Virus record (IMG/VR): IMGVR_UViG_3300027759_003166
Direction: 5' to 3' (one strand)
DNA length: 64,000 bases
Origin: a virus
Taxonomy: Duplodnaviria; Caudoviricetes
A model generated the notes under the pieces. The model worked only from the letters and a program-made list of their open reading frames with translations, ran no database searches and was not told where the DNA came from. The position numbers and the translations under genes are program-made. Position 1 is the first letter of the stretch. The number at the start of each line of letters is the position of its first letter. Below are positions 18,955 to 42,346 of the stretch, piece after piece.

Positions 18955-19626
18955 TTATACTACTTCTGGAAACAATACTTCACGTACAAATCTCTTGATA
19001 ACAGGTTCTGCCACACCCATGCTAACCATACTGCGTATAACATGTGGATTCTGCTTTTGATAGTGACAATAACGATTCTGCGCCATATGATAATCCGCTG
19101 CATCTTGCTGCGTATTTCCTACGTTTTTTACATAATAATCTAAACTATCCAGGGCTAATTGACATAAATCGTCGAGTTCTTTGCCTTCTTGTACATTACC
19201 CGCAGCAACCATGTTATCGCTAAAGATGTTACGTGCCCATTCTGGAAGTTCTCTAGACTTTTGCCATCCGTATTTTTTAGTCTCAATACCAAACCAACGC
19301 ATCATGTCATGGTTAGAATCACCTGCCGAACTGAAATCACAGAAAGCACCTGTGATCTTATTAGGGCCACATACAGCATCAAATCCCCAAATTGGACTTG
19401 GATCGTTAAAATGTGGGAATATGGTACAATGTAATATATAGATTTTGTGAGTTTCTCTATTATCTACAATTTCTATATGTGCTCTACGATAACGCGGACT
19501 TGACCAAAGTTGATTATGCCAGTTATAGTCTGTGCCCACGGTGCTATCTATAGGTTCACCTGTAGTATTGAATCGATCTTCAATCTGTTTGGCTAATTGC
19601 TCAATTTTGTTCCAAACTACTGTCAT
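18955..19626 (-). CDS. pcyX: Ferredoxin-dependent bilin reductase (PcyX/PcyA-like)
   Basis: RRAHIE, ILHCTIFP, WGFDAV and QNRYCHYQKQN, matching the PcyA family pattern. It lies directly behind a heme oxygenase. Confidence 0.8.
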   Translation of the reverse strand: MTVVWNKIEQLAKQIEDRFNTTGEPIDSTVGTDYNWHNQLWSSPRYRRAHIEIVDNRETHKIYILHCTIFPHFNDPSPIWGFDAVCGPNKITGAFCDFSSAGDSNHDMMRWFGIETKKYGWQKSRELPEWARNIFSDNMVAAGNVQEGKELDDLCQLALDSLDYYVKNVGNTQQDAADYHMAQNRYCHYQKQNPHVIRSMVSMGVAEPVIKRFVREVLFPEVV

Positions 19627-20146
19627 ATGATTCCATTATTTTAATTGCCCATTCAAAGGCTATATTGGCTTCAACAGCCATATCGTCTGACAACATGGTA
19701 CGTACAGTTTTAATTAACTCGGCACGATCTTCAAACTCTAAATGTGTATGTGGTGCTTCAACAATCTTCTTGATCATTTGTCCACCATGCAAGTCACCCA
19801 TATGCCATGTATAAAGATGTGCCATAACACGAGTAGGATCACCTAATGTTCGTATATAACTAACATACTCTTTGGTCACTTCTTTATAGGTATTGAAACT
19901 GCCTACAGGTTTATCCATGGATTCGTAGTCATCCATGATTAATCCTGCACGTTCAAAGCCCGGCGGCAATGCATTTAACAATCCTGCTTTACGAGCAGCA
20001 TGTTCAATTTCTTTATACCAAAGTTGTTTTTGATATGTAAAGTCTACCCATACATCATAGGGTAGAGTTTTGGCAAATACCGCTTTCATAAAAAGGGTAT
20101 CTTCCGCTTTTTGATGTTTATCAGCGGTTAAATCTTTTAGGCTCAT
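19601..20146 (-). CDS. hemO: Heme oxygenase
   Basis: LKDLTADKHQKAE (proximal His) and AHLYTWHMGDLHGGQMI (distal helix). Confidence 0.85.
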   Translation of the reverse strand: MSLKDLTADKHQKAEDTLFMKAVFAKTLPYDVWVDFTYQKQLWYKEIEHAARKAGLLNALPPGFERAGLIMDDYESMDKPVGSFNTYKEVTKEYVSYIRTLGDPTRVMAHLYTWHMGDLHGGQMIKKIVEAPHTHLEFEDRAELIKTVRTMLSDDMAVEANIAFEWAIKIMESYDSSLEQN

Positions 20147-28039: not shown

Positions 28040-28788
28040 AGCCGTTGTTCATAATGTACTTCTGCCCATTTAAAATTGTTCCAGGGAGAGTTTATTGCCA
28101 TTGAAGTTTTTTCACGTATATCGTGAAAGAACAATTTAGCATCAGTTTGTACGCTATCAACTAAACAATGGAAACTACTAGGTACGCAATGTATTTCTTC
28201 AGCACATTGAATTAATTTAGTAAACTGCATCATATCATCAGTAATGCCTTCCTTAATTTCAATAATTTTTATATCTTCTCTTAATCCTTGATGCTTTCTA
28301 AATTCATTAATGTTTATAGGAATACCTTCTGGGTTATCTCCTGTATACCTATGCACTAAAATATAAGGCTGGCCGTTGCTAAGAGATTGATATAGTTCTT
28401 CTGATCCTGCTATGTATTTAGGTAATCTAAAATTTGAATATCTTAATTCAAAGGATAATTCATAGTTTGAATAATGTTGTATATCCCACATAGGGATAAT
28501 CTGATAACTTCTTATATTACTTTGTACAAGAGGTATTGCTAGTAATCTAGAAAGTCCATGCGCTTTGGCATATTGAGCATGATGCTCTTCTATAGGTTCT
28601 AGTGCAACTACTTTTATGTTAGGATGATCTTGATACAATGTTTTTGTAGTTTTGTAGAAACTTGGTCGTGCAGGGAGATGTAATTCCTGGCATCTATCAG
28701 CATAATGATTTATCATACCGCTTTGTACAAAGCTATCACCTAATCCAACTGATCCTAGAAAAAATAATCTATCAAATATCTTTATCAT
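28036..28788 (-). CDS. Hypothetical protein, possibly GT-B-like
   Basis: GLGDSF N-terminus and AEEIHCVPSSF, similar in layout to viral glycosyltransferase-like proteins. Confidence 0.4.
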   Translation of the reverse strand: MIKIFDRLFFLGSVGLGDSFVQSGMINHYADRCQELHLPARPSFYKTTKTLYQDHPNIKVVALEPIEEHHAQYAKAHGLSRLLAIPLVQSNIRSYQIIPMWDIQHYSNYELSFELRYSNFRLPKYIAGSEELYQSLSNGQPYILVHRYTGDNPEGIPININEFRKHQGLREDIKIIEIKEGITDDMMQFTKLIQCAEEIHCVPSSFHCLVDSVQTDAKLFFHDIREKTSMAINSPWNNFKWAEVHYEQRL

Positions 28789-29318
28789 TAACGTTCTCTG
28801 ATATTTAATTTACGATACATATTTTGTACACCCACTGCCTGACGGATAGCATCTTCCAACGCATCGTGTTTCCCACCTGTGGGCATATCTGGATCAAAAC
28901 CAAGATCAAACAATGTTCGTGTATCACGCAATTGCCAAAAGTTCCAGGGCAACGGTTTGTTTAAAGAACGATAAATGTGTTCAAGTATAACCAAATCGAA
29001 GGTAGCACCATGGCTCCAGAAGGCGCTACAGCCCCACGCAAACTTATGAAACTGATTAATAGCATCTACTAAAGGAACACGATTGTCTGAACTAAATGCT
29101 TCTTCCATAATAGCAGGATCTTGTTTTGACCACCACTCAATGGTCAGGGGATCTACTTCTCTATTTAGAGCATCTTGGTCATCGATGTTGATACGGAAAT
29201 AGATCTTATCTGAATAACCTGTTCCATATGGATTGAAGTGTACTGCTCCTAATGTAAGGACAACAGCGTTTGGAGAAACTGCCATTGTTTCTAAGTCGAC
29301 CATAAGGTGCTTTGCCAT
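28788..29318 (-). CDS. DEDD 3'-5' exonuclease (Rv2179c / exonuclease VIII-like)
   Basis: MVDLET, WSHGATFD, RDTRT and HDALEDA. Confidence 0.85.
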   Translation of the reverse strand: MAKHLMVDLETMAVSPNAVVLTLGAVHFNPYGTGYSDKIYFRINIDDQDALNREVDPLTIEWWSKQDPAIMEEAFSSDNRVPLVDAINQFHKFAWGCSAFWSHGATFDLVILEHIYRSLNKPLPWNFWQLRDTRTLFDLGFDPDMPTGGKHDALEDAIRQAVGVQNMYRKLNIRER

Positions 29319-31056: not shown

Positions 31057-31085
31057 ATTATAGCAAGGTTTTACCTCTATGTCAA
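31057..31085 (-). promoter_or_regulatory. Consensus sigma70 promoter with GGTAAAACC in the spacer
   Basis: TTGACA-tagaGGTAAAACCttgc-TATAAT. Confidence 0.85.
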
Positions 31086-31088
31086 CCT

Positions 31089-31322
31089 TTAATACATCTT
31101 TTTGGGTAATTGCTGGTCACGTAGCTTTTTACGCCAGCGGGCTTTGGCTGCACCTTTGGCTCTTTTTCGGACAGTTGTAGGTTTTTCGTAGAATTCTTTG
31201 GCTCGATAGTCGTCCAAAAGTCCAGAATCTTCCACCTTTTGTTTTAGTTTTCTTAATGCTACGGCTATGGGTAGATCGCCAACAATAACTTTATTTCCGA
31301 ATACTCTATTTGGTTTGCTCAT
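31089..31322 (-). CDS. rpsU: 30S ribosomal protein S21
   Basis: [15 protein letters not shown]...[15 protein letters not shown]. Confidence 0.9.
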
Positions 31323-32538
31323 TTTTATTCTTATCAAAAATCATAATGGCCGACTCGCCATTCACAGTATTCTTACTTATCCGAATTAATGATAAACCGC
31401 GTTCTACAAGTTCAACAGCGTCAAATTGATAGGGCAATAATATCTTTTCAATGATATTTTTCAATCCACGAGCATTAGTTTTAAGTTCTTTAGCCTTGGC
31501 AGCAATTTCCTTTAGTGCATCTTTCTCAAATTCTAATTTAATACTGTCTAATTTAAACATATATTGATATTGTTTAACTGGACTGTTCTTTGTTTCTAAT
31601 AAAATTTCTACAAGTTGTTCTTCTGTAAGTTCATCTACATTAATAATAAGTCCAAAGCGTCCAACAAATTCAGGTATCAACCCATATTTAATTAAGTCTT
31701 TAGTATTCAAATCTTTATAAACAGCATTGCTATCTTCCTTGGTGTCTACATTAGCATGAAATCCCACTGATCTGGCATCTGTACGTTGTTTAATAATTTT
31801 ATCAATGCCCACAAATGCACCGCCACAAATAAACAATATACCGCGTGTATCAATCTCCTGCATTTCACCACCAGGATGTTTACGTTTACTAGTAGCAGGT
31901 ATACGCATAATGCTACCTTCAATCATTTTTAACAATGCTTGCTGTACACCTTCGCCGCTAACATCTCTGGTAATACTAGTGCTTTCACCTTTCTTGGCAA
32001 TTTTATCAATTTCATCAATGTAAACAATACCACGAGAGGCTTTTTCAAGATCTCCATCTGCTTCACTGATTAAACGTGTAAGAATACTTTCTACATCATC
32101 ACCAACATATCCCGCTTCAGTGATACCAGTAGCATCACAAATAGCAAAGGGAAGATCTAAGTAATCGGCGATCTTACGTGCCATCATAGTTTTGCCACAT
32201 CCTGTAGGACCTAGCATAAGCACATTAGTCTTTTCAATCTCTATATCGGGACTAGGATTGTTAATACGTTTGAAGTGTTGACTAACTGCTACACTAAGAG
32301 CAATCTTAGCATCTTCTTGTCCTATTACATAGTCGTCAAGATAATCTTTAATCTTAACAGGATTTAATAGTTTGGCCTGTTCGGTTGGCGCTTTGATTTT
32401 TTCATCAACTAAAATGTCATTGCAGAGATTAACACAGTCATTGCATATGGCTGCGTGTTCACCTACAATTAATTTTTCAACATCTTCTTTACTTTTTCCG
32501 CAAAAGTCACAGGAGTGATGATCTTTAAGTTTTGTCAT
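31306..32538 (-). CDS. clpX: ATP-dependent Clp protease ATPase ClpX
   Basis: Zn finger CDFC...[35 protein letters not shown] loop and VGF loop. Confidence 0.95.
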
Positions 32539-32920
32539 TAAATGCTTTCTCTAAGAATGTTTCTATGTTAGTAATTCTATTTTGATTAATGTAATGGCAT
32601 ATTGCCGATACATTTTCATCTGTGGTTTTGTAGTAAGTATTTTTCTTACCTAATATATAACCATTCAAAACAGAGCTAACGTTATTTAACTCATCCAAGT
32701 TAATATACTTATATTCGGCAACAGCCATGGCATGAAAAAACCATGTTAGTTCAGTCTCCCCGGAATAGAAATATATGTTAATATTTTCTTTAATATCAGC
32801 AGTGGCTAACCAACGACTAACAGCCTCTTGGTCTTCCTCACTTAGATGTATGAATAGAATACTATAGGATTCATTTTCAAAAACATCCGGGGGCGTGATA
32901 AGCGTAATCTTACCTTCCAT
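32525..32920 (-). CDS. Hypothetical protein
   Basis: 131 aa ORF coupled to both neighbours. Confidence 0.6.
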   Translation of the reverse strand: MEGKITLITPPDVFENESYSILFIHLSEEDQEAVSRWLATADIKENINIYFYSGETELTWFFHAMAVAEYKYINLDELNNVSSVLNGYILGKKNTYYKTTDENVSAICHYINQNRITNIETFLEKAFNDKT

Positions 32921-34167
32921 TATACTCGTGCTCTGACTTCATCAGCAATATCAACTGGAACGTGATGCATACTAACTTCTTTATTTTTTACACGATTTAC
33001 CCATTGATTTATAATCAATTCACGTTTACGTTCTTCGCTAACTTCGGCATATTCGGTTTGTGTAATTGTATTAGACCAAACACTACTTTCTTTCTGTTCT
33101 TCATTTTGAACATATCCGTCTGTTACTGTTTCAGTTAATGATACATCGTTAGGCTCAATTACCTGTGTTATACCACATTCTGTATTAGGACAATGTAATC
33201 CAATGTTAGGAGCATCTACTAATTCAGTACCACACTTGCTACAATTAATAGGTTCAAATTCTGTACCTTCAGTAACCTTTACAGCTGGCATAGGAACATA
33301 AGGCACTGGTTCTTCTTTAACTTCTGTCTTGGGCATTCTAAGCCCAACAATGGTGCCATTGCTATCTTTAAGTACACCCGGTTTGCCTTCGCGTTCTCTG
33401 AAATCTTGAAAACTCATTTGGCTGGCCAACAATAGAATAACTGCTAACGGATCAAATACAACAATCAATGTAATGATAACCCAGGTAACTGCTTTCTCTA
33501 AAATAGTTTCATCAGTGCTGCCATAAAAGAAAGCGGCTATATATTTTATCGGTCCAACCTCTGCCTCCACTTTTCTAACCTCGGCGGCAATAGGCGCACG
33601 TTCATTGTTAAGTTCCGCGATAGACTTCTGCGACTGTAGTATTTCATTTTGAAGGCGAGTACGTTCTTTCTGCTGGGACTTTCGCATAGCCACAGCTTTT
33701 TCGGCACCCGTTTCTGTTGTTGAGCGGCCCAATACTTGGTCCACTCCCTCATCCATTTGTTTAAGTGCCTTGCGGTTTGCTTCAATATTCTCTTTTTCGG
33801 TTTTAATTTTTTCATCATATATTGCAATTTTACTTGTAACATCCCCACTGACTAGATTTTGATCACTATGTGCTTTACTAAGGAATCCAAAGATACCCAT
33901 ACTAGTGATAATCATTAATACTACAATAGCTGTAAAGAGATATGTTTTGATCAGTAGTGGAGCAGTCTTCCAATTTTGTTTAAGCCATACTGTGGCCACC
34001 AACTTACTAACCTCTAAGGTAGTTCCCATAATAATAATAGGAACAACGGCGGCGGCGAAAATAGCTGTAAGTCCTACCACGCTATAGTAGACTGCCACTG
34101 CTGAAATACTTAGACCACTTAGTAGTGCGAGATATGCTATAAATTTTTCGTTAAGTGTTGGTTTCAT
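32920..34167 (-). CDS. Membrane-anchored coiled-coil protein
   Basis: Three N-terminal TM segments, a long coiled coil, VFDPLAV TM and a CSKC...CPNTEC motif. Confidence 0.7.
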   Translation of the reverse strand: MKPTLNEKFIAYLALLSGLSISAVAVYYSVVGLTAIFAAAVVPIIIMGTTLEVSKLVATVWLKQNWKTAPLLIKTYLFTAIVVLMIITSMGIFGFLSKAHSDQNLVSGDVTSKIAIYDEKIKTEKENIEANRKALKQMDEGVDQVLGRSTTETGAEKAVAMRKSQQKERTRLQNEILQSQKSIAELNNERAPIAAEVRKVEAEVGPIKYIAAFFYGSTDETILEKAVTWVIITLIVVFDPLAVILLLASQMSFQDFREREGKPGVLKDSNGTIVGLRMPKTEVKEEPVPYVPMPAVKVTEGTEFEPINCSKCGTELVDAPNIGLHCPNTECGITQVIEPNDVSLTETVTDGYVQNEEQKESSVWSNTITQTEYAEVSEERKRELIINQWVNRVKNKEVSMHHVPVDIADEVRARV

Positions 34168-34175
34168 AAGAATAT

Positions 34176-34568
34176 TTACCGTCGCATCCTTGAAATGTCA
34201 ATGGCCTCTTCGTCACTAAACACCGGAACAGCATTGCTCTTATGCATAGTAGCAATACCTTTAACCTTGGTACCAGTATATACCTTAGCTGGTGCCAATG
34301 TAGCAACACCTAGTCCACTATTAAGACTAGGGATATGTTTGGTGTTAGTACGACCCACTGGTGTCTCAAGTTTATATACGAGAGGTTCAGCCGCCATGGC
34401 ACGCCGACGTTTGCGTTCCTCTTGTTCTACACCTTGACGTTTGAGAAGGTCTTTCCATCCAGCATCTAACTCACGTGCTCGTTGAGCTTCAGCAGCATTA
34501 CGGAATTTAAACTTGCCCTTCTTCTTTCCAGTCGTGGTCAAGGCAGGGCCACATAGGTGCATAGACAT
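34176..34568 (-). CDS. Conserved basic phage protein
   Basis: C-terminus YTGTKVKGIATMHKSNAVPVF, a motif recurrent in T4-like phages. Confidence 0.65.
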   Translation of the reverse strand: MSMHLCGPALTTTGKKKGKFKFRNAAEAQRARELDAGWKDLLKRQGVEQEERKRRRAMAAEPLVYKLETPVGRTNTKHIPSLNSGLGVATLAPAKVYTGTKVKGIATMHKSNAVPVFSDEEAIDISRMRR

Positions 34569-34882
34569 TATGCTACTTCTTTAGTAGTTAACGTTTGTAA
34601 TGATCGTTGTTCAACAGCACGCCAGTTTTCTTTAGTAAGACCAGTGAATCGAAGAATAGTACCATTGGTTGCAATCTTGAAACTACCAGCGACAACCCAG
34701 ATCTGAAAACCAGTAGAATCAACTCCTGCAAGTTTTCGAACCACGCCGTTGACTTCACCAGACGCTGTATCACGTCCACGATTCCAATGATAGGTACTTT
34801 TATTACCTTTCCATCTTTGAGAATCACCAGAAGATTCTGTACAAAATTGGGCCAGTGATTGCATAGTAAGTTCTGAGGACAT
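34568..34882 (-). CDS. Hypothetical protein
   Basis: AGGAG SD and its own sigma70 promoter. Confidence 0.65.
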   Translation of the reverse strand: MSSELTMQSLAQFCTESSGDSQRWKGNKSTYHWNRGRDTASGEVNGVVRKLAGVDSTGFQIWVVAGSFKIATNGTILRFTGLTKENWRAVEQRSLQTLTTKEVA

Positions 34883-34908
34883 AATAACTCCTTTGTTGAT
34901 ATGTTATT

Positions 34909-34937
34909 ATTATACGGTAATTCCACTCAAAGAGCAA
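34909..34937 (-). promoter_or_regulatory. Sigma70-type promoter
   Basis: TTGCTC-N17-TATAAT. Confidence 0.6.
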
Positions 34938-34951
34938 GTGTAGATTTTACC

Positions 34952-34976
34952 AAAAGAAAAGGCCCCGAAGGGCCTT
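34952..34976 (-). terminator. Rho-independent terminator after the porin gene
   Basis: AAGGCCC-TTCG-GGGCCTT followed by TTCTTTT. Confidence 0.85.
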
Positions 34977-34997
34977 GGTTACAATTCTAATTTTGGA

Positions 34998-35885
34998 TTA
35001 GAAATTGTATTCTAGACCAGCACCATAACGTGTGGTATCTGTAGCGGAGCTCTCTTTAACATAGCGAGCAAGTACTTTGGTGTTTTTGCCCAAAGCATAA
35101 TTTGCACCTAAGTTATAAGACTTAAGAGGACCATTCTCACCATAGCTTGCCATAGCAACTAAAGTTGGAGTTACTGTTTGGTTTAGACCAACACTCTTAC
35201 CTTGGTTTGCTACATTGGCTACTTTGCTATCGGAATATAATCCAAATACAGTTGTACCAGTTTTGGCAAGACTAAACTTAGCACCATAAACATCAGTTGT
35301 GCTAGTTACGCCGTTGTCAAAACGAGCCCAGGTAGCAGCAACAGGTCCAGTGGAATAAACCAAACTAGCAGTGTATGGATTTGGAGTACCAGCTATTTCA
35401 CTGTTAGATAGTTCATACTTACCAACCAGTCCCTGAACAAGTGTAGCAGATACAAATACTGTATTGCTCAAACGTGCTCCTTGATAGGAGTGAATAGCTG
35501 CGGCGCTGGAACCATACAAATCTCCACCCATGGCATCAAAGCCGTCAATGGATTTAGTTAGAGCGGTTTTGTCACGGCCAAGCCCAATTGATCCTGTCTT
35601 GTTTGATAGGCCAACAAGTGCTGCGCGATCTCCAAGTGTGCTAGCTGCTGGAGCATCTACACCTACATTGGTTTCAACTGTAACGAATGCAGTTAAACCA
35701 TTGCCAATGTTGTCAGAGGCTTTGATACCAATCCGGCTTTTGTCATTGACCATAGATGTTACAGATGCTGCTGTGCCAACAGTAGATGATTCTTCATAGA
35801 CACGAGCCATTCCATAAACGGAGACATCGGCCTGGGCGAATCCCATTAGGCCGATTGATAATGCAAATATTGCAAGTTTTTTCAT
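34998..35885 (-). CDS. Gram-negative trimeric porin (betaproteobacterial Omp32/OmpC-like)
   Basis: Signal peptide, VSVYG, SRIG...GNGLTA and terminal GLEYNF (C-terminal Phe Bam signal). Confidence 0.88.
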   Translation of the reverse strand: MKKLAIFALSIGLMGFAQADVSVYGMARVYEESSTVGTAASVTSMVNDKSRIGIKASDNIGNGLTAFVTVETNVGVDAPAASTLGDRAALVGLSNKTGSIGLGRDKTALTKSIDGFDAMGGDLYGSSAAAIHSYQGARLSNTVFVSATLVQGLVGKYELSNSEIAGTPNPYTASLVYSTGPVAATWARFDNGVTSTTDVYGAKFSLAKTGTTVFGLYSDSKVANVANQGKSVGLNQTVTPTLVAMASYGENGPLKSYNLGANYALGKNTKVLARYVKESSATDTTRYGAGLEYNF

Positions 35886-35928
35886 ATTAAATTTCCTTTA
35901 GTTTTGTATAGTCTAGAAGACATACTAT

Positions 35929-35957
35929 ATTATGTATCTCTTTGAGACAAAGGTCAA
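35929..35957 (-). promoter_or_regulatory. Sigma70-type promoter of the porin gene with an imperfect palindrome in the spacer
   Basis: TTGACC-N17-CATAAT; the spacer holds TGTCTC-AAA-GAGATA. Confidence 0.55.
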
Positions 35958-35974
35958 GAAAAAAGGCTATCAAA

Positions 35975-36241
35975 TTAGCCTTTTTCCTCAGTTTGTACCT
36001 CACGATACCGATGTATGGCCTTTAAACGAGCCAATGCCAAACGTACAGTAATGTAGTCTGATAACTCATCTTCACCAATGTGATGACATTTATCATCACA
36101 TGGTATTAGACTTGGACGACGATATGCAACATGAAAATCAATGTCATCATATCCATCATCGTCGCCGTCGTCTATTTCAGATGGATTACTTCTTTGCAGG
36201 CTCAGTAGTTTTTGCTGCGTCCTTGGTAGCAGGCGCTTCAC
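35975..36241 (-). CDS. Possible acidic hypothetical protein (start uncertain)
   Basis: Fills the gap between genes, but the start overlaps the upstream ORF. Confidence 0.35.
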   Translation of the reverse strand: MKRLLPRTQQKLLSLQRSNPSEIDDGDDDGYDDIDFHVAYRRPSLIPCDDKCHHIGEDELSDYITVRLALARLKAIHRYREVQTEEKG

Positions 36242-36428
36242 TTTTGACAGGCGTAGCTTCTGCTTTCTTTTCTACTTTCTTCTCATCCTTCTTTGCAGGT
36301 GCTGCTGGAGTAGCAGGAGCAGTTGCGGCCACAGCTGGTGTAGCAGGTGCTGCTGGAGTCTTAGCAGGCTCAGTAGCAAAAGCAGATACGGCAACAAGGC
36401 CAGCAATTAGAGTTAAGATTGATTTCAT
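36186..36428 (-). CDS. Secreted Pro/Ala/Lys-rich small protein
   Basis: Signal peptide followed by PAAPATPA and KKDEKK low-complexity sequence; GGAAA SD. Confidence 0.7.
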   Translation of the reverse strand: MKSILTLIAGLVAVSAFATEPAKTPAAPATPAVAATAPATPAAPAKKDEKKVEKKAEATPVKSEAPATKDAAKTTEPAKK

Positions 36429-36519
36429 GATAAGTTTCCTTTTGGTTAATGTACAGAAATTATTTGCTGTACATATATATAACGCGGTAGCTCAAAGGAA
36501 AGTTTACAAGATTATAAAA

Positions 36520-36654
36520 TTATATTTTCAATTCTTCGTAATCGTCTTTACTTACACCACAGTCTGGACAGCAGAAGTTATCATCTAAATCTTCCCATTT
36601 ACCTTCAGTTTCTTCATCGTGGACATGGCCACATACTAAACAAACGTGTTCCAT
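36520..36654 (-). CDS. Rubredoxin (44 aa, not in the ORF track)
   Basis: MEHVCLVCGHVHDEETEGKWEDLDDNFCCPDCGVSKDDYEELKI, with CxxC...CPxC. Its ATG overlaps the rubrerythrin stop. Confidence 0.85.
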   Translation of the reverse strand: MEHVCLVCGHVHDEETEGKWEDLDDNFCCPDCGVSKDDYEELKI

Positions 36655-37103
36655 TATAGTTTCTCCAATACTTCTTGATATGCTGCTGCGTGACGTTGCT
36701 CGACTTTTTGTAATGCTGCAAAACGCTTTTCTGCTCTGGAAAGAATTACAGCAAATTCTTTAGCGTGTTGTTTGCTTTCGTCAATTTGCTCAGATATTGT
36801 TTCTAATATAGTTAATGTTCCTTCGATTATAGCATCCTTTTTAAACTCTGGATACATTACTGTATACTCATAAGTTTCTCCTTCGATGGCTTTTTCCAAA
36901 CATTCTCTAGTACTTGGTTTACCAATAAGTAATTCCAAATGACTCCAGGCGTGTAGCAATTCTTGATCTGCTGTATGTTCAAAGTGTTTAGCAACATCCT
37001 CAAACCCTTCTTCGCGGGCAATTTTGGCAAAATAACGATATTTGATATGTGCCTGGCTTTCTCCTGACAAAGCACTTTCAAGATTTTTTAATGTAACTGA
37101 CAT
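36654..37103 (-). CDS. Short-chain rubrerythrin
   Basis: NLESALSGES, ELLH, EGETYE...MYP and ESKQH di-iron ligands. Confidence 0.88.
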   Translation of the reverse strand: MSVTLKNLESALSGESQAHIKYRYFAKIAREEGFEDVAKHFEHTADQELLHAWSHLELLIGKPSTRECLEKAIEGETYEYTVMYPEFKKDAIIEGTLTILETISEQIDESKQHAKEFAVILSRAEKRFAALQKVEQRHAAAYQEVLEKL

Positions 37104-37126
37104 TGTGTGTCTCCTTGTAAAATTAT

Positions 37127-37155
37127 ATTGTACTTTTATTTAATACAGAAATCAA
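37127..37155 (-). promoter_or_regulatory. Sigma70-type promoter of rubrerythrin
   Basis: TTGATT-N17-TACAAT, then an AAGGAG SD. Confidence 0.6.
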
Positions 37156-37163
37156 CTATAAAA

Positions 37164-37201
37164 CAATATTTTTCAATTGTAATTTCCTATTATGATTATA
37201 G
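37164..37201. promoter_or_regulatory. Possible OxyR/LysR-type operator
   Basis: CAAT-N8-ATTG-N7-CTAT-N7-ATAG, upstream of the -35. Confidence 0.3.
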
Positions 37202-37204
37202 GAT

Positions 37205-37226
37205 AAAGAAACCCGCCGAAGCGGGT
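37205..37226 (-). terminator. Rho-independent terminator after tmRNA
   Basis: ACCCGC-TTCG-GCGGGT-TTCTTT; identical to 42325-42346. Confidence 0.85.
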
Positions 37227-37229
37227 CCT

Positions 37230-37478
37230 TGGTTGTTTTGGTAATAAGGTATTTCCTACCTCACCTTAGCCTCAAGCGGCTATGGAATATAAACTATCGT
37301 TTGCCTTTAGTTTGATTTGCTTGATTTACGGTCATCGCCTACCGAGTTGCCGTCGCTGACTATTTGCCCAATCGATTACCAGAGCACCCCCACCTAAATA
37401 TAAATTATACACTTAGGTGGAGGTGGCCGGATTCGAACCGGCGTCTTGAACACATCATCTTTGAAGGGATTACAACTA
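37230..37478 (-). ncRNA. ssrA: Circularly permuted (two-piece) tmRNA
   Basis: Minus-strand order: acceptor piece ending GCCGG-TTCGAAT-CCGGC-CACCTCC-A-CC (to 37416), a 24-nt spacer, then a coding piece starting GGGGGTG (37391). G3-U70 pair present. Tag ORF 37304-37272 reads ANDSLYSIAA*. Confidence 0.88.
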
Positions 37479-37487
37479 TTCTTTTAT

Positions 37488-37802
37488 TTAACGCTGAAAG
37501 CAATTACGCTCACGATAAATTTGTCCATCTGGAGTCTGGATCTCTTTCCAATCAGTACAAACAGTTGTGGGTTGTTGAACAATCACAGGACGTTGAACAA
37601 CTACCGGTTGTTGTTGCACTACGGTTTGAGGTTGATTAGCATTGGCAATAACGGCTCCTGCAATTCCACCGAGTATCAACGGACCTACCCAATCATTGTT
37701 GCGTTCAACAATGACAGTACGTTCTGGATAACGATGATGCCATTGGGCGTTTGCTGCCGTGGCTGCTACCAACATAGTAATTACCAATACAAGTTTTTTC
37801 AT
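37488..37802 (-). CDS. Secreted hypothetical protein with a glycine-zipper-like segment
   Basis: Signal peptide, GPLILGGIAGAVIA, a QP-rich linker and two Cys. Confidence 0.7.
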   Translation of the reverse strand: MKKLVLVITMLVAATAANAQWHHRYPERTVIVERNNDWVGPLILGGIAGAVIANANQPQTVVQQQPVVVQRPVIVQQPTTVCTDWKEIQTPDGQIYRERNCFQR

Positions 37803-37857
37803 TTCTATCTCCTGTTAGTTAAATAACGCCTTAGAACACTGTTGTGTTGACATAATT

Positions 37858-38499
37858 TTACTTGTTTGCTAGAGGATTGTCAATAGCTTTCTGTATCTTT
37901 TGGTCAAGTTCCTTCTTCAATGTTTCCACATCTTTGGTAACTTCTTTCTTTAATGCCTGTGTTTCACTACTAATTTCTCTACGTGCTTGAGCCATTTCAG
38001 TTCGGACAGCATTAGCTTCTGCACGGGCTTTGTCCAAATCTTCTCTAACACCTTTACGCATTTCACGCATTTCCCCTTCGGAATCACGTTGGGCTGCTTT
38101 AACAAAACGTTCAACTTGCTCGGTTACACTTTCGTTTCTGCGTAGATCACTCTTTAAGTCATTTTTAATATCACGTGTATATCCATTTGCTTCTGTAACT
38201 GAATCTTCTGCTTTCTTAATCTTTTGATCAAGTATGGATATACGTTTATCAAACTCAGTTAGGTCTGGTGCTGAATATTCAGATATCTTTTTCTTCATAC
38301 CCACATAGTCTTTATAGACTTCAAAGGCTCCGTAAAGCCCCCCCAGTATAGATGATACAATAGTAAATGCCACCATTAGTTTTGCTGGTGTAAATTCATA
38401 ACCACCAATACTAATAACAGTATCTTTACTAGCATACTTTTTTGCTGCTGCTTCAAGTTCGTCAACTTTGGCATCTACACTTTTAATTTCTTCTGTCAT
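37858..38499 (-). CDS. Single-TM coiled-coil protein
   Basis: TM segment followed by long heptad repeats. Confidence 0.7.
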   Translation of the reverse strand: MTEEIKSVDAKVDELEAAAKKYASKDTVISIGGYEFTPAKLMVAFTIVSSILGGLYGAFEVYKDYVGMKKKISEYSAPDLTEFDKRISILDQKIKKAEDSVTEANGYTRDIKNDLKSDLRRNESVTEQVERFVKAAQRDSEGEMREMRKGVREDLDKARAEANAVRTEMAQARREISSETQALKKEVTKDVETLKKELDQKIQKAIDNPLANK

Positions 38500-38510
38500 T
38501 TTTATTCTCC

Positions 38511-40982
38511 TTATTTGTATTGCATATCAATCATTTGTTTATGCAAACTATCACTACTCATTTGTCTTAATGCTCTTGCATTATCAACCACTGTTTGTCC
38601 CTTATAAACTTCCTTGGGTTCATAAAAGGCTGCATCCCTTAATGCAACACTATATACTTCAAACCCTTTTGGTTGTAGGGCCATTGATGCAATATCAACG
38701 CTGCCTGCTAGATCATTCGGTTGTACATTTCTATTAACTGTGCTGGTTTGTTGTTGTATATTTTCTTGCATCATTTCAAAACGTTGTTGCATTAAATCTG
38801 ATAGTGGACTACCTGCACGAGCATTTCCAAAACTGGCTATTTGTATTGCAGGTACTTCTACTTCATTTACTTTTGTTTCATTACGTAGTTGATATGTAGA
38901 AGCAGATTGTGCAGTTGGTTGTGTATTGGCAGAACTTGCTACATTGAATAAGTTAAGTCCAATTGGGTTATTTTTTCCAATAACTAATCCAGTACCACTA
39001 TTAGTTTGGGTAACACTTTCTGGTATTGGCGGTGCAGGCGGTTTTAACATACTTGAACTGCCTGCAGATGTATCTTGTTGTTGAACATTGATATTAGATG
39101 ACATCATTGATAATGTAATTACTCCAGAGGCTGCTTGTTGTACTTGTTGAGTTTCCTGTACTTGTTGTGTGGCACGATAAGAATTATTTGATTGTCCTTG
39201 TTGACCAGACGACTGATTAACCTGTTGCGTTTGTTGCATTGTTGTCTGTGATGTTCCTATAGATGCTTGAGTTGATTGGCTAGAAAACTGTGCTGCGGCC
39301 GCTGCACTATTAGCACTCATATCATTTAATGATGCAATGGCTGCGGCTGCCGTAGCCTGTGATTGCTGTGTAGATCCTTCTACTATTCTAGCAGCATTTT
39401 GTACCGCCATCTGTTGTGTGGCCTTATCTCTCTCCTGCGCAGCCCTTGCTACATTTAATGCAGCACCTGGCGTCATTCTAGGACCATCTGCTCTACTTGG
39501 ACCTGCTTGTTGTGACCCAGAACTTGTAGGTGGTGCAGACTGTGCTGTCTGTGGAGGACCGCCTGCAGGTTGTGGAGTTGTAGGTGCTGGTCCTGCTTGT
39601 TGTGGACTAGGCTGTGCTGGATTATCTTGTGCTACCACTGGATTCTGATTTGGATCTTGTCCAGTACTTGCCGACTGTTGTTGCGGTGATTGCTGGGCGG
39701 GTTGCTGTTGTGCTTGTTGTTGTGCAGGATCAGGACTTGCTAATGCTGGGGCGCTGGCACTTGCTACAGTTGAACCTAAGATCATATTTTTAGCATAGGC
39801 AACGGCATAACCAGGGCAAGTGGTACTTGACAAAGGATTAGTCACACACGGGTCTGGTTTATAAAGAGCATTAACATACATATTTTGAATTGCCGCATTA
39901 CCCGATGTACTAGCACCTAGTGTAAAATTACCTAATGATAATGAATTTGTTGTACTGGCAAGTAAGAACTGATATGAAACATTTTCAGCAGTATTAGGAG
40001 TACTTCTACTTTGTGTGGCAGTATAAATTACATCATTGCTACTGTTGGTTAATCGTACTCTCATAGTAGCATTCGGATTGTTAGTTAAGTAGGCGCCGCA
40101 GGTAAAAGCATTATCCCAACTTACACATTCGTTGGTCCTTGTACCATTGCCTAAACTATAATTATAACCATAGTTGAAACCGTATACTTCAACACCTGCT
40201 CCAGAACTTTTAAGTGCTGTATTGATAGCAAATGAATTGTAAACTATATCACCGTTGGACATTAAATTTGAATTTACTAAATTACCACTAGTGACTACGC
40301 TACTAAATCCTGAGCAATTAGGACTGTATGCAGGATTAAGACTACAAGGATCAACTCGATATTTCAAACTAAAACTAACGTTGGTAATTTCTGGACCATA
40401 ATTACCAGCCCAAAAGTTATTGTCCTTACCAACAAAGCCAACTCGTGCATTGCTATAGTTTGTAGCCGCTATAGGATTGGCAAATGTTTCACTAAAGTTG
40501 AAATCAGTCCAGTTGTATTTGGCGTTAGTATGACTTAGGTAATCATATGCGGCAACCTGGGTACCGGCGGTATTATAAAACTTAACATAAGCATCTAAAT
40601 AATCTTGCCTACCGTCATCCCAGCCGTTGCCGTTTTTAGCACGAAATCCAAAATTAAAACCACTTAGTTGTACTCCACTACCACCTGCGGCCAATGCTCG
40701 ATTTATATTAACAACTTGATTTAAGTCTATTTGACCATAACTGAAATTGATACTGCCGTCGGGTCTAACACTGGGATTAGGGCCGCAATTGCCAGGTTGG
40801 CCAGCCTGGAAACATATTTGACTAACGTACACACCATTGTTCCAAATGCTGGTTGTATCTGTAGGTGTAGTACCGGTATTGATTAAATTACCGGTAGTAG
40901 GATCAACAGTTTGGGCTTTAGAATGACTTATAAACGATAGCGCCAAGCAAAGCACCAAGGCCCATTTTAGTATACGTGTCAT
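38511..40982 (-). CDS. Large secreted protein with beta-rich domains and a Gln/Ala/Ser-rich stalk
   Basis: Signal peptide, two DPC..NP..S..C.G[FY] motifs and a Q-rich low-complexity region. Confidence 0.7.
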   Translation of the reverse strand: MTRILKWALVLCLALSFISHSKAQTVDPTTGNLINTGTTPTDTTSIWNNGVYVSQICFQAGQPGNCGPNPSVRPDGSINFSYGQIDLNQVVNINRALAAGGSGVQLSGFNFGFRAKNGNGWDDGRQDYLDAYVKFYNTAGTQVAAYDYLSHTNAKYNWTDFNFSETFANPIAATNYSNARVGFVGKDNNFWAGNYGPEITNVSFSLKYRVDPCSLNPAYSPNCSGFSSVVTSGNLVNSNLMSNGDIVYNSFAINTALKSSGAGVEVYGFNYGYNYSLGNGTRTNECVSWDNAFTCGAYLTNNPNATMRVRLTNSSNDVIYTATQSRSTPNTAENVSYQFLLASTTNSLSLGNFTLGASTSGNAAIQNMYVNALYKPDPCVTNPLSSTTCPGYAVAYAKNMILGSTVASASAPALASPDPAQQQAQQQPAQQSPQQQSASTGQDPNQNPVVAQDNPAQPSPQQAGPAPTTPQPAGGPPQTAQSAPPTSSGSQQAGPSRADGPRMTPGAALNVARAAQERDKATQQMAVQNAARIVEGSTQQSQATAAAAIASLNDMSANSAAAAAQFSSQSTQASIGTSQTTMQQTQQVNQSSGQQGQSNNSYRATQQVQETQQVQQAASGVITLSMMSSNINVQQQDTSAGSSSMLKPPAPPIPESVTQTNSGTGLVIGKNNPIGLNLFNVASSANTQPTAQSASTYQLRNETKVNEVEVPAIQIASFGNARAGSPLSDLMQQRFEMMQENIQQQTSTVNRNVQPNDLAGSVDIASMALQPKGFEVYSVALRDAAFYEPKEVYKGQTVVDNARALRQMSSDSLHKQMIDMQYK

Positions 40983-42255
40983 CTATTTTTTCCTCTTCCA
41001 CTGCTGGAACTTTTTCTTTGTTTTCTTCCCAGGCTAGTTTGGCTTGTTCGCCAATCTTACCTTCGTATGGGCAAGGTGTTCCTGCTGCCATCATAGCATC
41101 AAATATACGACGGTCTTGACACATAGTAGCCACCGCTGCTACCTTCATACCCATATCATATAATGTTTTGGCCAACTTTAATCTTTCGCAATTCATATCA
41201 CGTATGGTACCGCCACCACTTACGCCGAAGATCTGTGTCTGTACACTACCACTGGATCCTGTGGTACATAGATCACCATTGCCGCCACTCATCATTGATG
41301 GTGCAACTGCTGTAGGTGGAGGTTGAATAACACGCTGTGTAATATCACTGGTATTAACATTGTTATTAGTCATTGTACCACTGTTGATATTTTGATTAAC
41401 ATTGTTGTTAGAATTGGTGCTAGCACTGGTAGATGAGTTAACATTATTATTATTGTTGGTCATACTACCACTTTGAACGTTGTTGTTAGTCATTGTACCA
41501 CTGTTGATATTGGTATTAACATTATTACTAGTTGATGAATTTTGATTAATATTATTATTGTTATTAGTCATCGTACCACTATTAATGTTAGTGTTGGTAC
41601 TAACATTGGTGTTGACATTGTTATTGTTATTGGTCATTGTACCAGAATTAATATTGTTGTTGGTATTAACGCTGGTGCTAGAGTTAACATTATTATTGTT
41701 ATTAGTTGCGGTACTTGTACTAGCATTATTATTGTTGTAGGTCATTGTACCAGTATTAACATTATTATTTGTATTAACACTGGTGCTAGCGTTGACATTA
41801 TTATTGTTGTAGGTCATTGTACCTGTGTTAACATTGTTGTTGGTATTAACGCTGGTACTGGTACTAACATTGTTATTATTATTGGTCATCGTACCGGTAT
41901 TAACGTTATTGTTATTAAACGTTTGAGTTCCGCTATTAACGTTGTTATTATTGTTGGTATACGTAACTGACCCTGACATAACATTATTGTTGTTATTGTT
42001 ATTGGTCATTGTACCCGTATTAACATTATTATTGTTATTGGTATTAACACTAGTGCTACCAACTGTGGTTTGGTTAATATTGGTTATGGTACCACTATTA
42101 ACGTTATTGGTATTAATAGTACTTGTGCTGGTAGATGTACTATTGGTATCTACTAAACTTTTAGAATCGTAACCACCTTGGTTAATTACAGTTTGTGCCC
42201 AAACTGTAGATATAAAGAACATGGCCGCTAACCATAAAAGAATTTTATTAAACAT
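40918..42255 (-). CDS. Secreted Asn/Thr-repeat protein with a Cys-containing C-terminal domain
   Basis: Signal peptide, about 12 N[VI]N[ST]GT[MI]T-type repeats separated by Asn runs, then DLC...NCERLK...MCQD...TPCP and a C-terminal hydrophobic segment. Confidence 0.75.
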   Translation of the reverse strand: MFNKILLWLAAMFFISTVWAQTVINQGGYDSKSLVDTNSTSTSTSTINTNNVNSGTITNINQTTVGSTSVNTNNNNNVNTGTMTNNNNNNNVMSGSVTYTNNNNNVNSGTQTFNNNNVNTGTMTNNNNNVSTSTSVNTNNNVNTGTMTYNNNNVNASTSVNTNNNVNTGTMTYNNNNASTSTATNNNNNVNSSTSVNTNNNINSGTMTNNNNNVNTNVSTNTNINSGTMTNNNNNINQNSSTSNNVNTNINSGTMTNNNVQSGSMTNNNNNVNSSTSASTNSNNNVNQNINSGTMTNNNVNTSDITQRVIQPPPTAVAPSMMSGGNGDLCTTGSSGSVQTQIFGVSGGGTIRDMNCERLKLAKTLYDMGMKVAAVATMCQDRRIFDAMMAAGTPCPYEGKIGEQAKLAWEENKEKVPAVEEEKIDDTYTKMGLGALLGAIVYKSF

Positions 42256-42324: not shown

Positions 42325-42346
42325 AAAGAAACCCGCCGAAGCGGGT
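42325..42346 (-). terminator. Rho-independent terminator
   Basis: ACCCGC-TTCG-GCGGGT-TTCTTT. Confidence 0.85.

Follow-up and report, generated by a model that had tools for sequence, protein, structure and literature searches.

The window analysed here, a 64,000-nt stretch of tailed-phage DNA (Duplodnaviria; Caudoviricetes) recorded in IMG/VR as IMGVR_UViG_3300027759_003166, has a G+C content of about 37% and encodes ClpX, DnaK, Hsp20, a Gram-negative-type porin, rubrerythrin and ribonucleotide reductase (RNR). On its minus strand lies a structurally intact, full-length gene for a two-piece (circularly permuted) tmRNA of the betaproteobacterial type. The order of the tRNA-like halves is reversed: the T-arm and the stretch CACCUCC-A-CC (37425-37416) stand upstream of GGGGGUG (37391-37385). 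The acceptor piece, which makes up the 3' half of the tRNA-like domain (37416-37477), is delimited by sequence, Rfam alignment and covariation. It begins AGUUGU and comprises the 5' strands of the helices that join the two pieces, the T-arm GCCGG-UUCGAAU-CCGGC (37426-37442, placed by Rfam alignment and covariation) and the 3' acceptor strand CACCUCC (37425-37419), followed by the discriminator A73 at 37418 and CC at 37417-37416. CCA is incompletely encoded, the base next to ACC being a U. An intervening segment of 24 nt (37392-37415) separates this piece from the next and, taken together with A73-C-C and the GGU that precedes G1, folds into a hairpin of 11 bp; when the precursor is folded, the acceptor stem and the spacer hairpin become one continuous 18-bp helix. 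The segment would be removed on maturation. The coding piece (37204-37391, the lower end approximate) carries GGGGGUG, the 3' strands of helix 2, a hairpin, the tag, helix 5, a 3' region with a hairpin or pseudoknot between helix 5 and the terminator, and finally the terminator.

The 7-bp acceptor stem, GGGGGUG/CACCUCC, contains the alanine identity pair G3:U70 next to discriminator A73. Two further helices connect the pieces, UGUUCAA/UUGGGCA (37452-37446 with 37371-37365) and AGUUG/CAACU (37477-37473 with 37349-37345), and both fit paired columns of the Rfam family RF01850. This layout had been proposed in a first-pass annotation made from the letters alone, which described a permuted two-piece tmRNA on the minus strand. 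Its alanine-type acceptor stem, its inter-piece pairings and its 24-nt spacer closed by ACCTAA/TTAGGT (37415-37392) are all present where it had placed them, and its acceptor piece, set at about 37478-37416, is borne out with the start moved to 37477. Two parts of the RNA depart from the bacterial model in the Rfam alignment: one inner segment of helix 2 (AAGA) is poorly paired, and the helix around the 3' pseudoknot region bears mismatch marks. At the position of pseudoknot PK1 there is a hairpin, CGGU-AGGCGAUG-ACCG (37329-37344), which is a paired element of RF01850 and differs by two compensatory changes from its bacterial counterpart CGUC/GACG. The annotation had called it a pk1-like stem; it stands as a hairpin, but no pseudoknot partner was found for 37344-37329, where only the model's 4-bp hairpin is present. 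Pairing of the loop GGCG with CGCC at the bacterial resume region was considered and rejected, being unconserved in the phage genes.

The tag reading frame, GCA...GCU UGA (37272-37304), reads ANDSLYSIAA* both by translation and in ARAGORN -ps. The resume codon GCA (37304) is preceded by UAAAG, which provides U(-5) and A(-4), and the stop codon UGA sits in the loop of a 4-bp helix 5 (AGCC/GGCU). The tag keeps AAND..Y and a hydrophobic-AA end, in line with the SspB-type AANDxxY and the terminal AA on which the annotation had remarked. The hairpin at the 3' end (37209-37228), with UUCG as its loop and a run of U, is an intrinsic terminator found by sequence search. The annotation had the terminator right but ended the gene at 37230; with the terminator at 37228-37209, the gene reaches about 25 nt further. 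The 18-nt core of this hairpin recurs at 42329-42346 on the minus strand, downstream of a small gene; one terminator sequence is reused by the phage.

Two covariance models, of which the annotation had named the beta one as a check, score above their gathering cut-offs: RF01850 (beta_tmRNA) gives 149.9 bits (E 4.8e-46; cut-off 84 bits) over model positions 1-331, which is the full model, and RF04321 (tmRNA_permuted) gives 126 bits (E 3.2e-24; cut-off 47 bits) over positions 1-213. The RNA folds at -92.6 kcal/mol, with a z-score of -4.56 against shuffled sequences. Together the Rfam scores and the folding z-score put the match to a permuted tmRNA far beyond chance. ARAGORN, the other check, gave a split answer: at default settings it reports no tmRNA gene in the window, and with -ps (95% threshold) it returns a permuted tmRNA, labelled tmRNAp*, at 37507-37181 with the same tag. 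Since lowering the threshold to 95% recovers the gene, the default miss is a threshold effect and not evidence against it.

Upstream of the tmRNA, on the same strand, is an ORF of 104 aa with an N-terminal signal peptide (37488-37802) and no match in Pfam or PHROG. A role for its product as a substitute for SmpB was rejected, as it is a signal-peptide protein without family match. Two candidate promoters can be drawn. A TAAATA motif (37485-37490, minus strand) lies 7 nt ahead of the first base of the acceptor piece and shares bases with the stop codon of the upstream ORF. It is a candidate for the tmRNA's own promoter; in the alignment to the bacterial beta_tmRNA model it falls on the -10 box, and TAAATA or TATAAT occupies the same place in many relatives. 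A sigma-70-like sequence, TTGACA-17-TAAAAT (37855-37883, minus strand, 11 of 12 consensus matches), stands upstream of the 104-aa ORF and could yield a read-through precursor containing the tmRNA. A third candidate, TATAAT within the spacer (37409-37404), was rejected: it has no -35 element, and bacterial spacers do not have the box. It had come into consideration through the conservation of the spacer, for which the processing hairpin is the better explanation.

Directly downstream of the tmRNA lie the Gram-negative porin gene (34998-35885) and a short rubrerythrin gene (36654-37103), both on the minus strand; in a protein atlas the porin falls in clusters of viral proteins, its nearest bacterial relatives being Pseudomonadota. 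Farther along the same strand, a heme oxygenase gene (19601-20146) adjoins one for a ferredoxin-dependent bilin reductase (18955-19626), the two making up a pigment-biosynthesis pair in a phage without evident phototrophic host. The nearest record, G001, is an IMG/VR fragment of 51 kb that is syntenic with the window. CheckV puts its completeness at 14%, which at 51 kb implies a jumbo phage. In 15 studies, lake and other freshwater metagenomes contain near-identical DNA. The phage GenBank collection yielded no cultured relative: blastn with the window tmRNA and tblastn with a neighbouring 823-aa protein gave no match, and all ClpX matches were below 60% identity and spread across unrelated phages. 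A host search over 400 genomes, made at order level, returned only matches of about 70%; one genome (G300) gave no more than a T-arm match of 29 nt.

Relatives of the gene are plentiful in IMG/VR. A scan with the 24-nt spacer retrieved 26 contigs, and a spacer-independent scan retrieved at least 120 stretches, with the permuted layout in at least 93 contigs. Covariation was assessed in 49 distinct phage sequences with short spacers; the search pattern dictated some columns of this set, but none of those that covary. The five pairs of the T-arm are kept in 46-49 of the 49, with GC/CG/AU/UA exchanges. Pair 5 of the acceptor stem is CG in 29 and UA in 20, and both inter-piece helices covary (for example GC 21 / UA 19 and CG 22 / UA 20). 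The G3:U70 pair is present in all 49, and the spacer hairpin is paired in at least 47. More than 35 tag variants occur among the relatives, every one of them starting AN or AK and ending in a hydrophobic residue followed by Ala-Ala. In the near-identical contig L133 the tmRNA is about 99% identical to that of the window, as against about 93% for the aligned 3.7-kb region and 79% for the upstream flank, a pattern that points to purifying selection on the tmRNA.

The stem of the spacer hairpin, TAAGTGTAT-NNNN-TATATTTAGGT, is near-invariant across phage tmRNAs whose bodies are only about 60% identical, and among the matches listed 54 of 94 permuted genes retrieved without the spacer carry this 24-nt hairpin (for example L124-L148). 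A second class of phage genes has an encoded CCA and spacers of 26-179 nt, the spacers ending in ...CTGAT.

Taken together, the sequence and comparative evidence appears to support well the reading we favor, namely that this freshwater jumbo phage carries a functional ssrA gene of the betaproteobacterial two-piece type. We would put its probability at about 0.85.

As a gene, it is ordinary, and its novelty is low. The first-pass annotation had given one-piece tmRNAs as the form known in phages and drew novelty from the contrast, a point that does not survive: Buchholz et al. 2022 (PMC9004378) described two-piece tmRNAs in the Methylophilales phage Melnitz, the Pelagibacter phage Mosig and others, and counted 53 two-piece forms among 133 unique tmRNA structures from 402 isolate phages, 50 of the 53 being marine or aquatic. 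Phage two-piece tmRNA is thus already known. Like the genes of Melnitz and Mosig, the window gene is a permuted ssrA in its entirety, its carrier too is a large lytic phage of aquatic habitat, and the roles proposed are the same. The Melnitz gene, however, is of the alphaproteobacterial type and is accompanied by a glutamine riboswitch, whereas the window gene is of the beta type and belongs to a freshwater phage with a much larger genome; no riboswitch reached Rfam thresholds in the window. Al-Shayeb et al. 2020 (PMC7162821), in a survey made with ARAGORN, reported huge phages with tmRNA and SmpB, the tmRNA lying beside many tRNAs. The present gene resembles these in being part of a jumbo-phage translation toolkit and differs in that neither the window ORFs tested nor the related phages searched yielded an SmpB. 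ARAGORN at default settings found 4 of 4 bacterial beta-type genes and 5 of 21 phage relatives. Censuses of phage tmRNA based on this program are therefore likely to undercount, as its default settings miss both the window gene and 16 of those 21 relatives. A 2025 tmRNA database holds 79 bacteriophage sequences (PMC11915505).

There are close parallels in bacteria as well. The betaproteobacterial two-piece tmRNA (Sharkady & Williams 2004, which is ref. 74 of PMC9004378; family RF01850, represented in Dechloromonas/Azonexus, Thauera, Propionivibrio and Georgfuchsia) has the same gene order, break point and short spacer. The resemblance includes the GGGGGUG/CACCUCC stem with G3:U70, A73 and an incompletely encoded CCA; the 5' start AUAGUUGUAAUYCC, the layout of helix 2 and a hairpin whose loop reads AGGCGAU; a tag that opens with AND, closes with AA and has UAAA upstream of its resume codon, with the stop codon in the loop of helix 5; and, toward the 3' end, the element CCUU-UUACCAAA and the terminal UUCG hairpin. 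A scan of species-representative genomes gave genes of this Rhodocyclales type in Azonexus/Dechloromonas, Thauera, Propionivibrio, Accumulibacter and Georgfuchsia. In the bacterial beta-type genes GGGGGUG comes 24-49 nt after the 3' acceptor strand, and in several of them the spacer reads TAAG...TTAGGT directly before GGGGGUG, exactly as in the phage. The compact 24-nt spacer is normal for the beta lineage. Aligned with sequences from Dechloromonas/Azonexus, Georgfuchsia, Accumulibacter and a Lac Pavin MAG, the window RNA is colinear across nt 7-190, with about 71% identity over this stretch, which spans the permutation junction. Unlike the bacterial genes, the window gene is phage-borne and AT-rich, reaching about 71% identity at best over its first 190 nt; its tag is ANDSLYSIAA in place of ANDERFA(I/L)AA, one segment of helix 2 and the helix around the 3' pseudoknot depart from the bacterial model as noted above, and its 3' hairpin is the phage's own recurrent terminator.

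These likenesses bear on how the permutation arose. The annotation had raised the idea that it took place independently, in a phage lineage that started from a one-piece tmRNA. Nothing speaks specifically for this, though the phage tmRNAs are the more diverse and, in an unrooted tree, are not nested in the bacterial clade: the bacterial sequences, 43 in number, fall into a single clade (100/99), diversity is much greater on the phage side, and the window groups with L133 and L145. An independent event would have had to arrive at the bacterial break point, at a short spacer with the same TAAG...TTAGGT closure, and at the shared 5' start, AGGCGAU loop, 3' element and UUCG hairpin, all within an RNA that matches RF01850 over its full length and well above the cut-off. 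We regard it as scarcely credible. By the common break point, spacer and flanking elements, the phage gene and the beta lineage go back to one and the same permutation. Which way the gene was transferred cannot be read from the tree, which is unrooted and for which the bacterial sample was picked by search pattern.

From the anatomy, family membership, structural conservation and bacterial homology documented above, we infer the following course of maturation and action, every biochemical step of which is put forward conditionally. A single precursor transcript would start at TAAATA, or come from the promoter upstream of the 104-aa ORF by read-through, and end at the UUCG terminator. Host RNase P would cut on the 5' side of G37391, the 24-nt hairpin would be removed, and the 3' trailer would be trimmed to ACC, to which the host CCA-adding enzyme would add the last A. 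The products, an acceptor piece of 62-63 nt and a coding piece of about 185 nt, would be held together by the acceptor stem and helix 2. Host AlaRS would charge the RNA by virtue of G3:U70 and A73, and with host SmpB the tmRNA would enter stalled ribosomes, where translation would resume at GCA and append (A)ANDSLYSIAA. The tagged product would then pass to ClpXP, for which the phage supplies its own ClpX. That a permuted gene can work in this manner has an experimental precedent in Caulobacter crescentus (Keiler, Shapiro & Williams 2000, which is ref. 73 of PMC9004378), where it gives rise to two base-paired RNAs that tag proteins, although the Caulobacter tmRNA is chromosomal, belongs to the alpha-type lineage and differs from the window gene in spacer and pseudoknot content. 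Two features tell against a functional RNA. The helix around the 3' pseudoknot deviates from the bacterial model, as noted above, and with an 18-bp continuous helix and an unencoded CCA the precursor would be a non-ideal substrate for RNase P, a design that the bacterial beta-type genes share. The likely benefit to the phage would be extra capacity for ribosome rescue at a time when host mRNAs are degraded or cleaved in the course of infection.

The RNA would probably depend on SmpB, AlaRS, RNase P and CCA-adding enzyme of the host. SmpB (PF01668) was not found among 40 window ORFs scanned with Pfam, in the 14%-complete G001, or in two jumbo phages of 357 kb and 340 kb whose genomes are complete and bear related tmRNAs, and it is its lack in the window ORFs and in the complete phages that makes dependence on the host probable. 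The CCA-adding enzyme (PF01743) was likewise not found in G001 or in the two complete phages. These absences are indicative only, since the two complete phages are distant relatives of the window phage. The compatibility of the window tmRNA with host SmpB and AlaRS is assumed. A Rv2179c-like 3'-5' exoribonuclease is encoded at 28788-29318 on the minus strand (Pfam E 5.5e-36) and might trim the 3' trailers of tRNA or tmRNA, which would be relevant as the CCA of the tmRNA is not encoded.

The lack of SmpB in the related phages searched could also be taken to mean that the locus is a relic (a piece captured from a host, or what was once an attachment site) or a decoy against trans-translation in the host. 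Phages do carry tmRNA fragments at att sites (PMC9004378), and the mycobacteriophage DS6A offers an example of a decoy in its tmRNA without CDS (PMC11915505). The RNA-library data would fit this explanation as well. Two viral RNA-seq runs contain pieces of the tmRNA of relatives, at depths of about 60-390, and an exact contig covering 37418-37677 is present in a lake metatranscriptome; being assembled contigs, with uninformative ends and a possible origin from DNA, they say nothing of transcription or processing. A relic, on the other hand, would hardly be expected to retain full length with every helix intact, to show compensatory changes throughout a large phage-specific family, or to conserve the tag frame and degron ends over more than 35 variants. 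Neither would it be expected to keep about 99% identity in L133 next to a flank at 79%. The neighbouring genes examined showed no integrase. We therefore consider a relic or decoy quite improbable, and a working gene remains the reading that we favor.

A working gene need not serve bulk rescue in the first place. Its main task might be to target selected (host) proteins to a ClpX(P) under phage control for amino-acid recycling, to report on the translational state of the host, or to counter defences that cleave tRNA or mRNA. Such roles were proposed in PMC9004378 and PMC7162821. The genomic setting lends them some color. The genes for ClpX, DnaK and Hsp20 all lie within one 17-kb stretch; clpX itself (31306-32538, minus strand) is 4.7 kb from the tmRNA, and its product, with a zinc finger, Walker A/B motifs, a GYVG pore loop, an RKH loop and a VGF ClpP-docking loop, is a candidate unfoldase for the tagged proteins. 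Both complete jumbo phages with a tmRNA also have ClpP. The exchange of the tmRNA unit between genomes that are otherwise 85-98% identical, and the high diversity of the tags, would fit a diversifying pressure. Yet the sequence holds nothing that separates these roles from ordinary rescue. Moreover, the ClpX of G001 is 97% identical to that of the window (the complete phage G006 has 51%) in spite of the different tags of the two phages, and tag and ClpX therefore do not covary tightly. A main role of this sort strikes us as unlikely, if clearly less so than a relic, and rescue of stalled ribosomes is retained as the principal function in our reading.

The exchange just mentioned may be the new element in these data, both as allele swap and in its modular mosaicism. 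Between the window and G001 (L144), the flanks are 92.6% (31080-37211) and 93.3% (37464-41822) identical, and in G001 (7935-8305 of L144) a divergent allele replaces the tmRNA unit 37211-37464, of which only the spacer still aligns. The G001 allele differs in its T-arm, is longer in the PK1 region and encodes the tag ANASNDEVWALAA. Two further, independent cases were found: L140 compared with L154/L250, with flanks at 96-98% and the tmRNA at 73%, and the L164 group compared with L195, with flanks at 85-95% and the tmRNA at 74%. In many pairs the tRNA-like domain is 92-98% identical and the tag plus 3' domain only 26-58%. The family is in this sense a mosaic, its modules being the tRNA-like domain, the PK1 region, and the tag with the 3' domain.

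It is tempting to speculate that the tmRNA locus of freshwater jumbo phages is a hot spot of selected diversification, at which whole units and modules are exchanged around a near-invariant spacer hairpin. We offer this as a tentative view that we think has the odds against it; the replacement of alleles would fit selection and merely frequent recombination alike. Were it true, phage tmRNA would be subject to an arms race or to a host-matching pressure, for which tmRNA-targeting factors, tag-specific proteolysis and the fit to the SmpB or AlaRS of different hosts are the candidates. What can be said of the family as a whole is that uncultured freshwater phages widely carry the beta-type form, with at least 93 IMG/VR contigs to its name. 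If selection does drive the swaps, the phage tmRNA would have a part in the conflict between phage and host, whether as target or as tool, and would not be a passive accessory.
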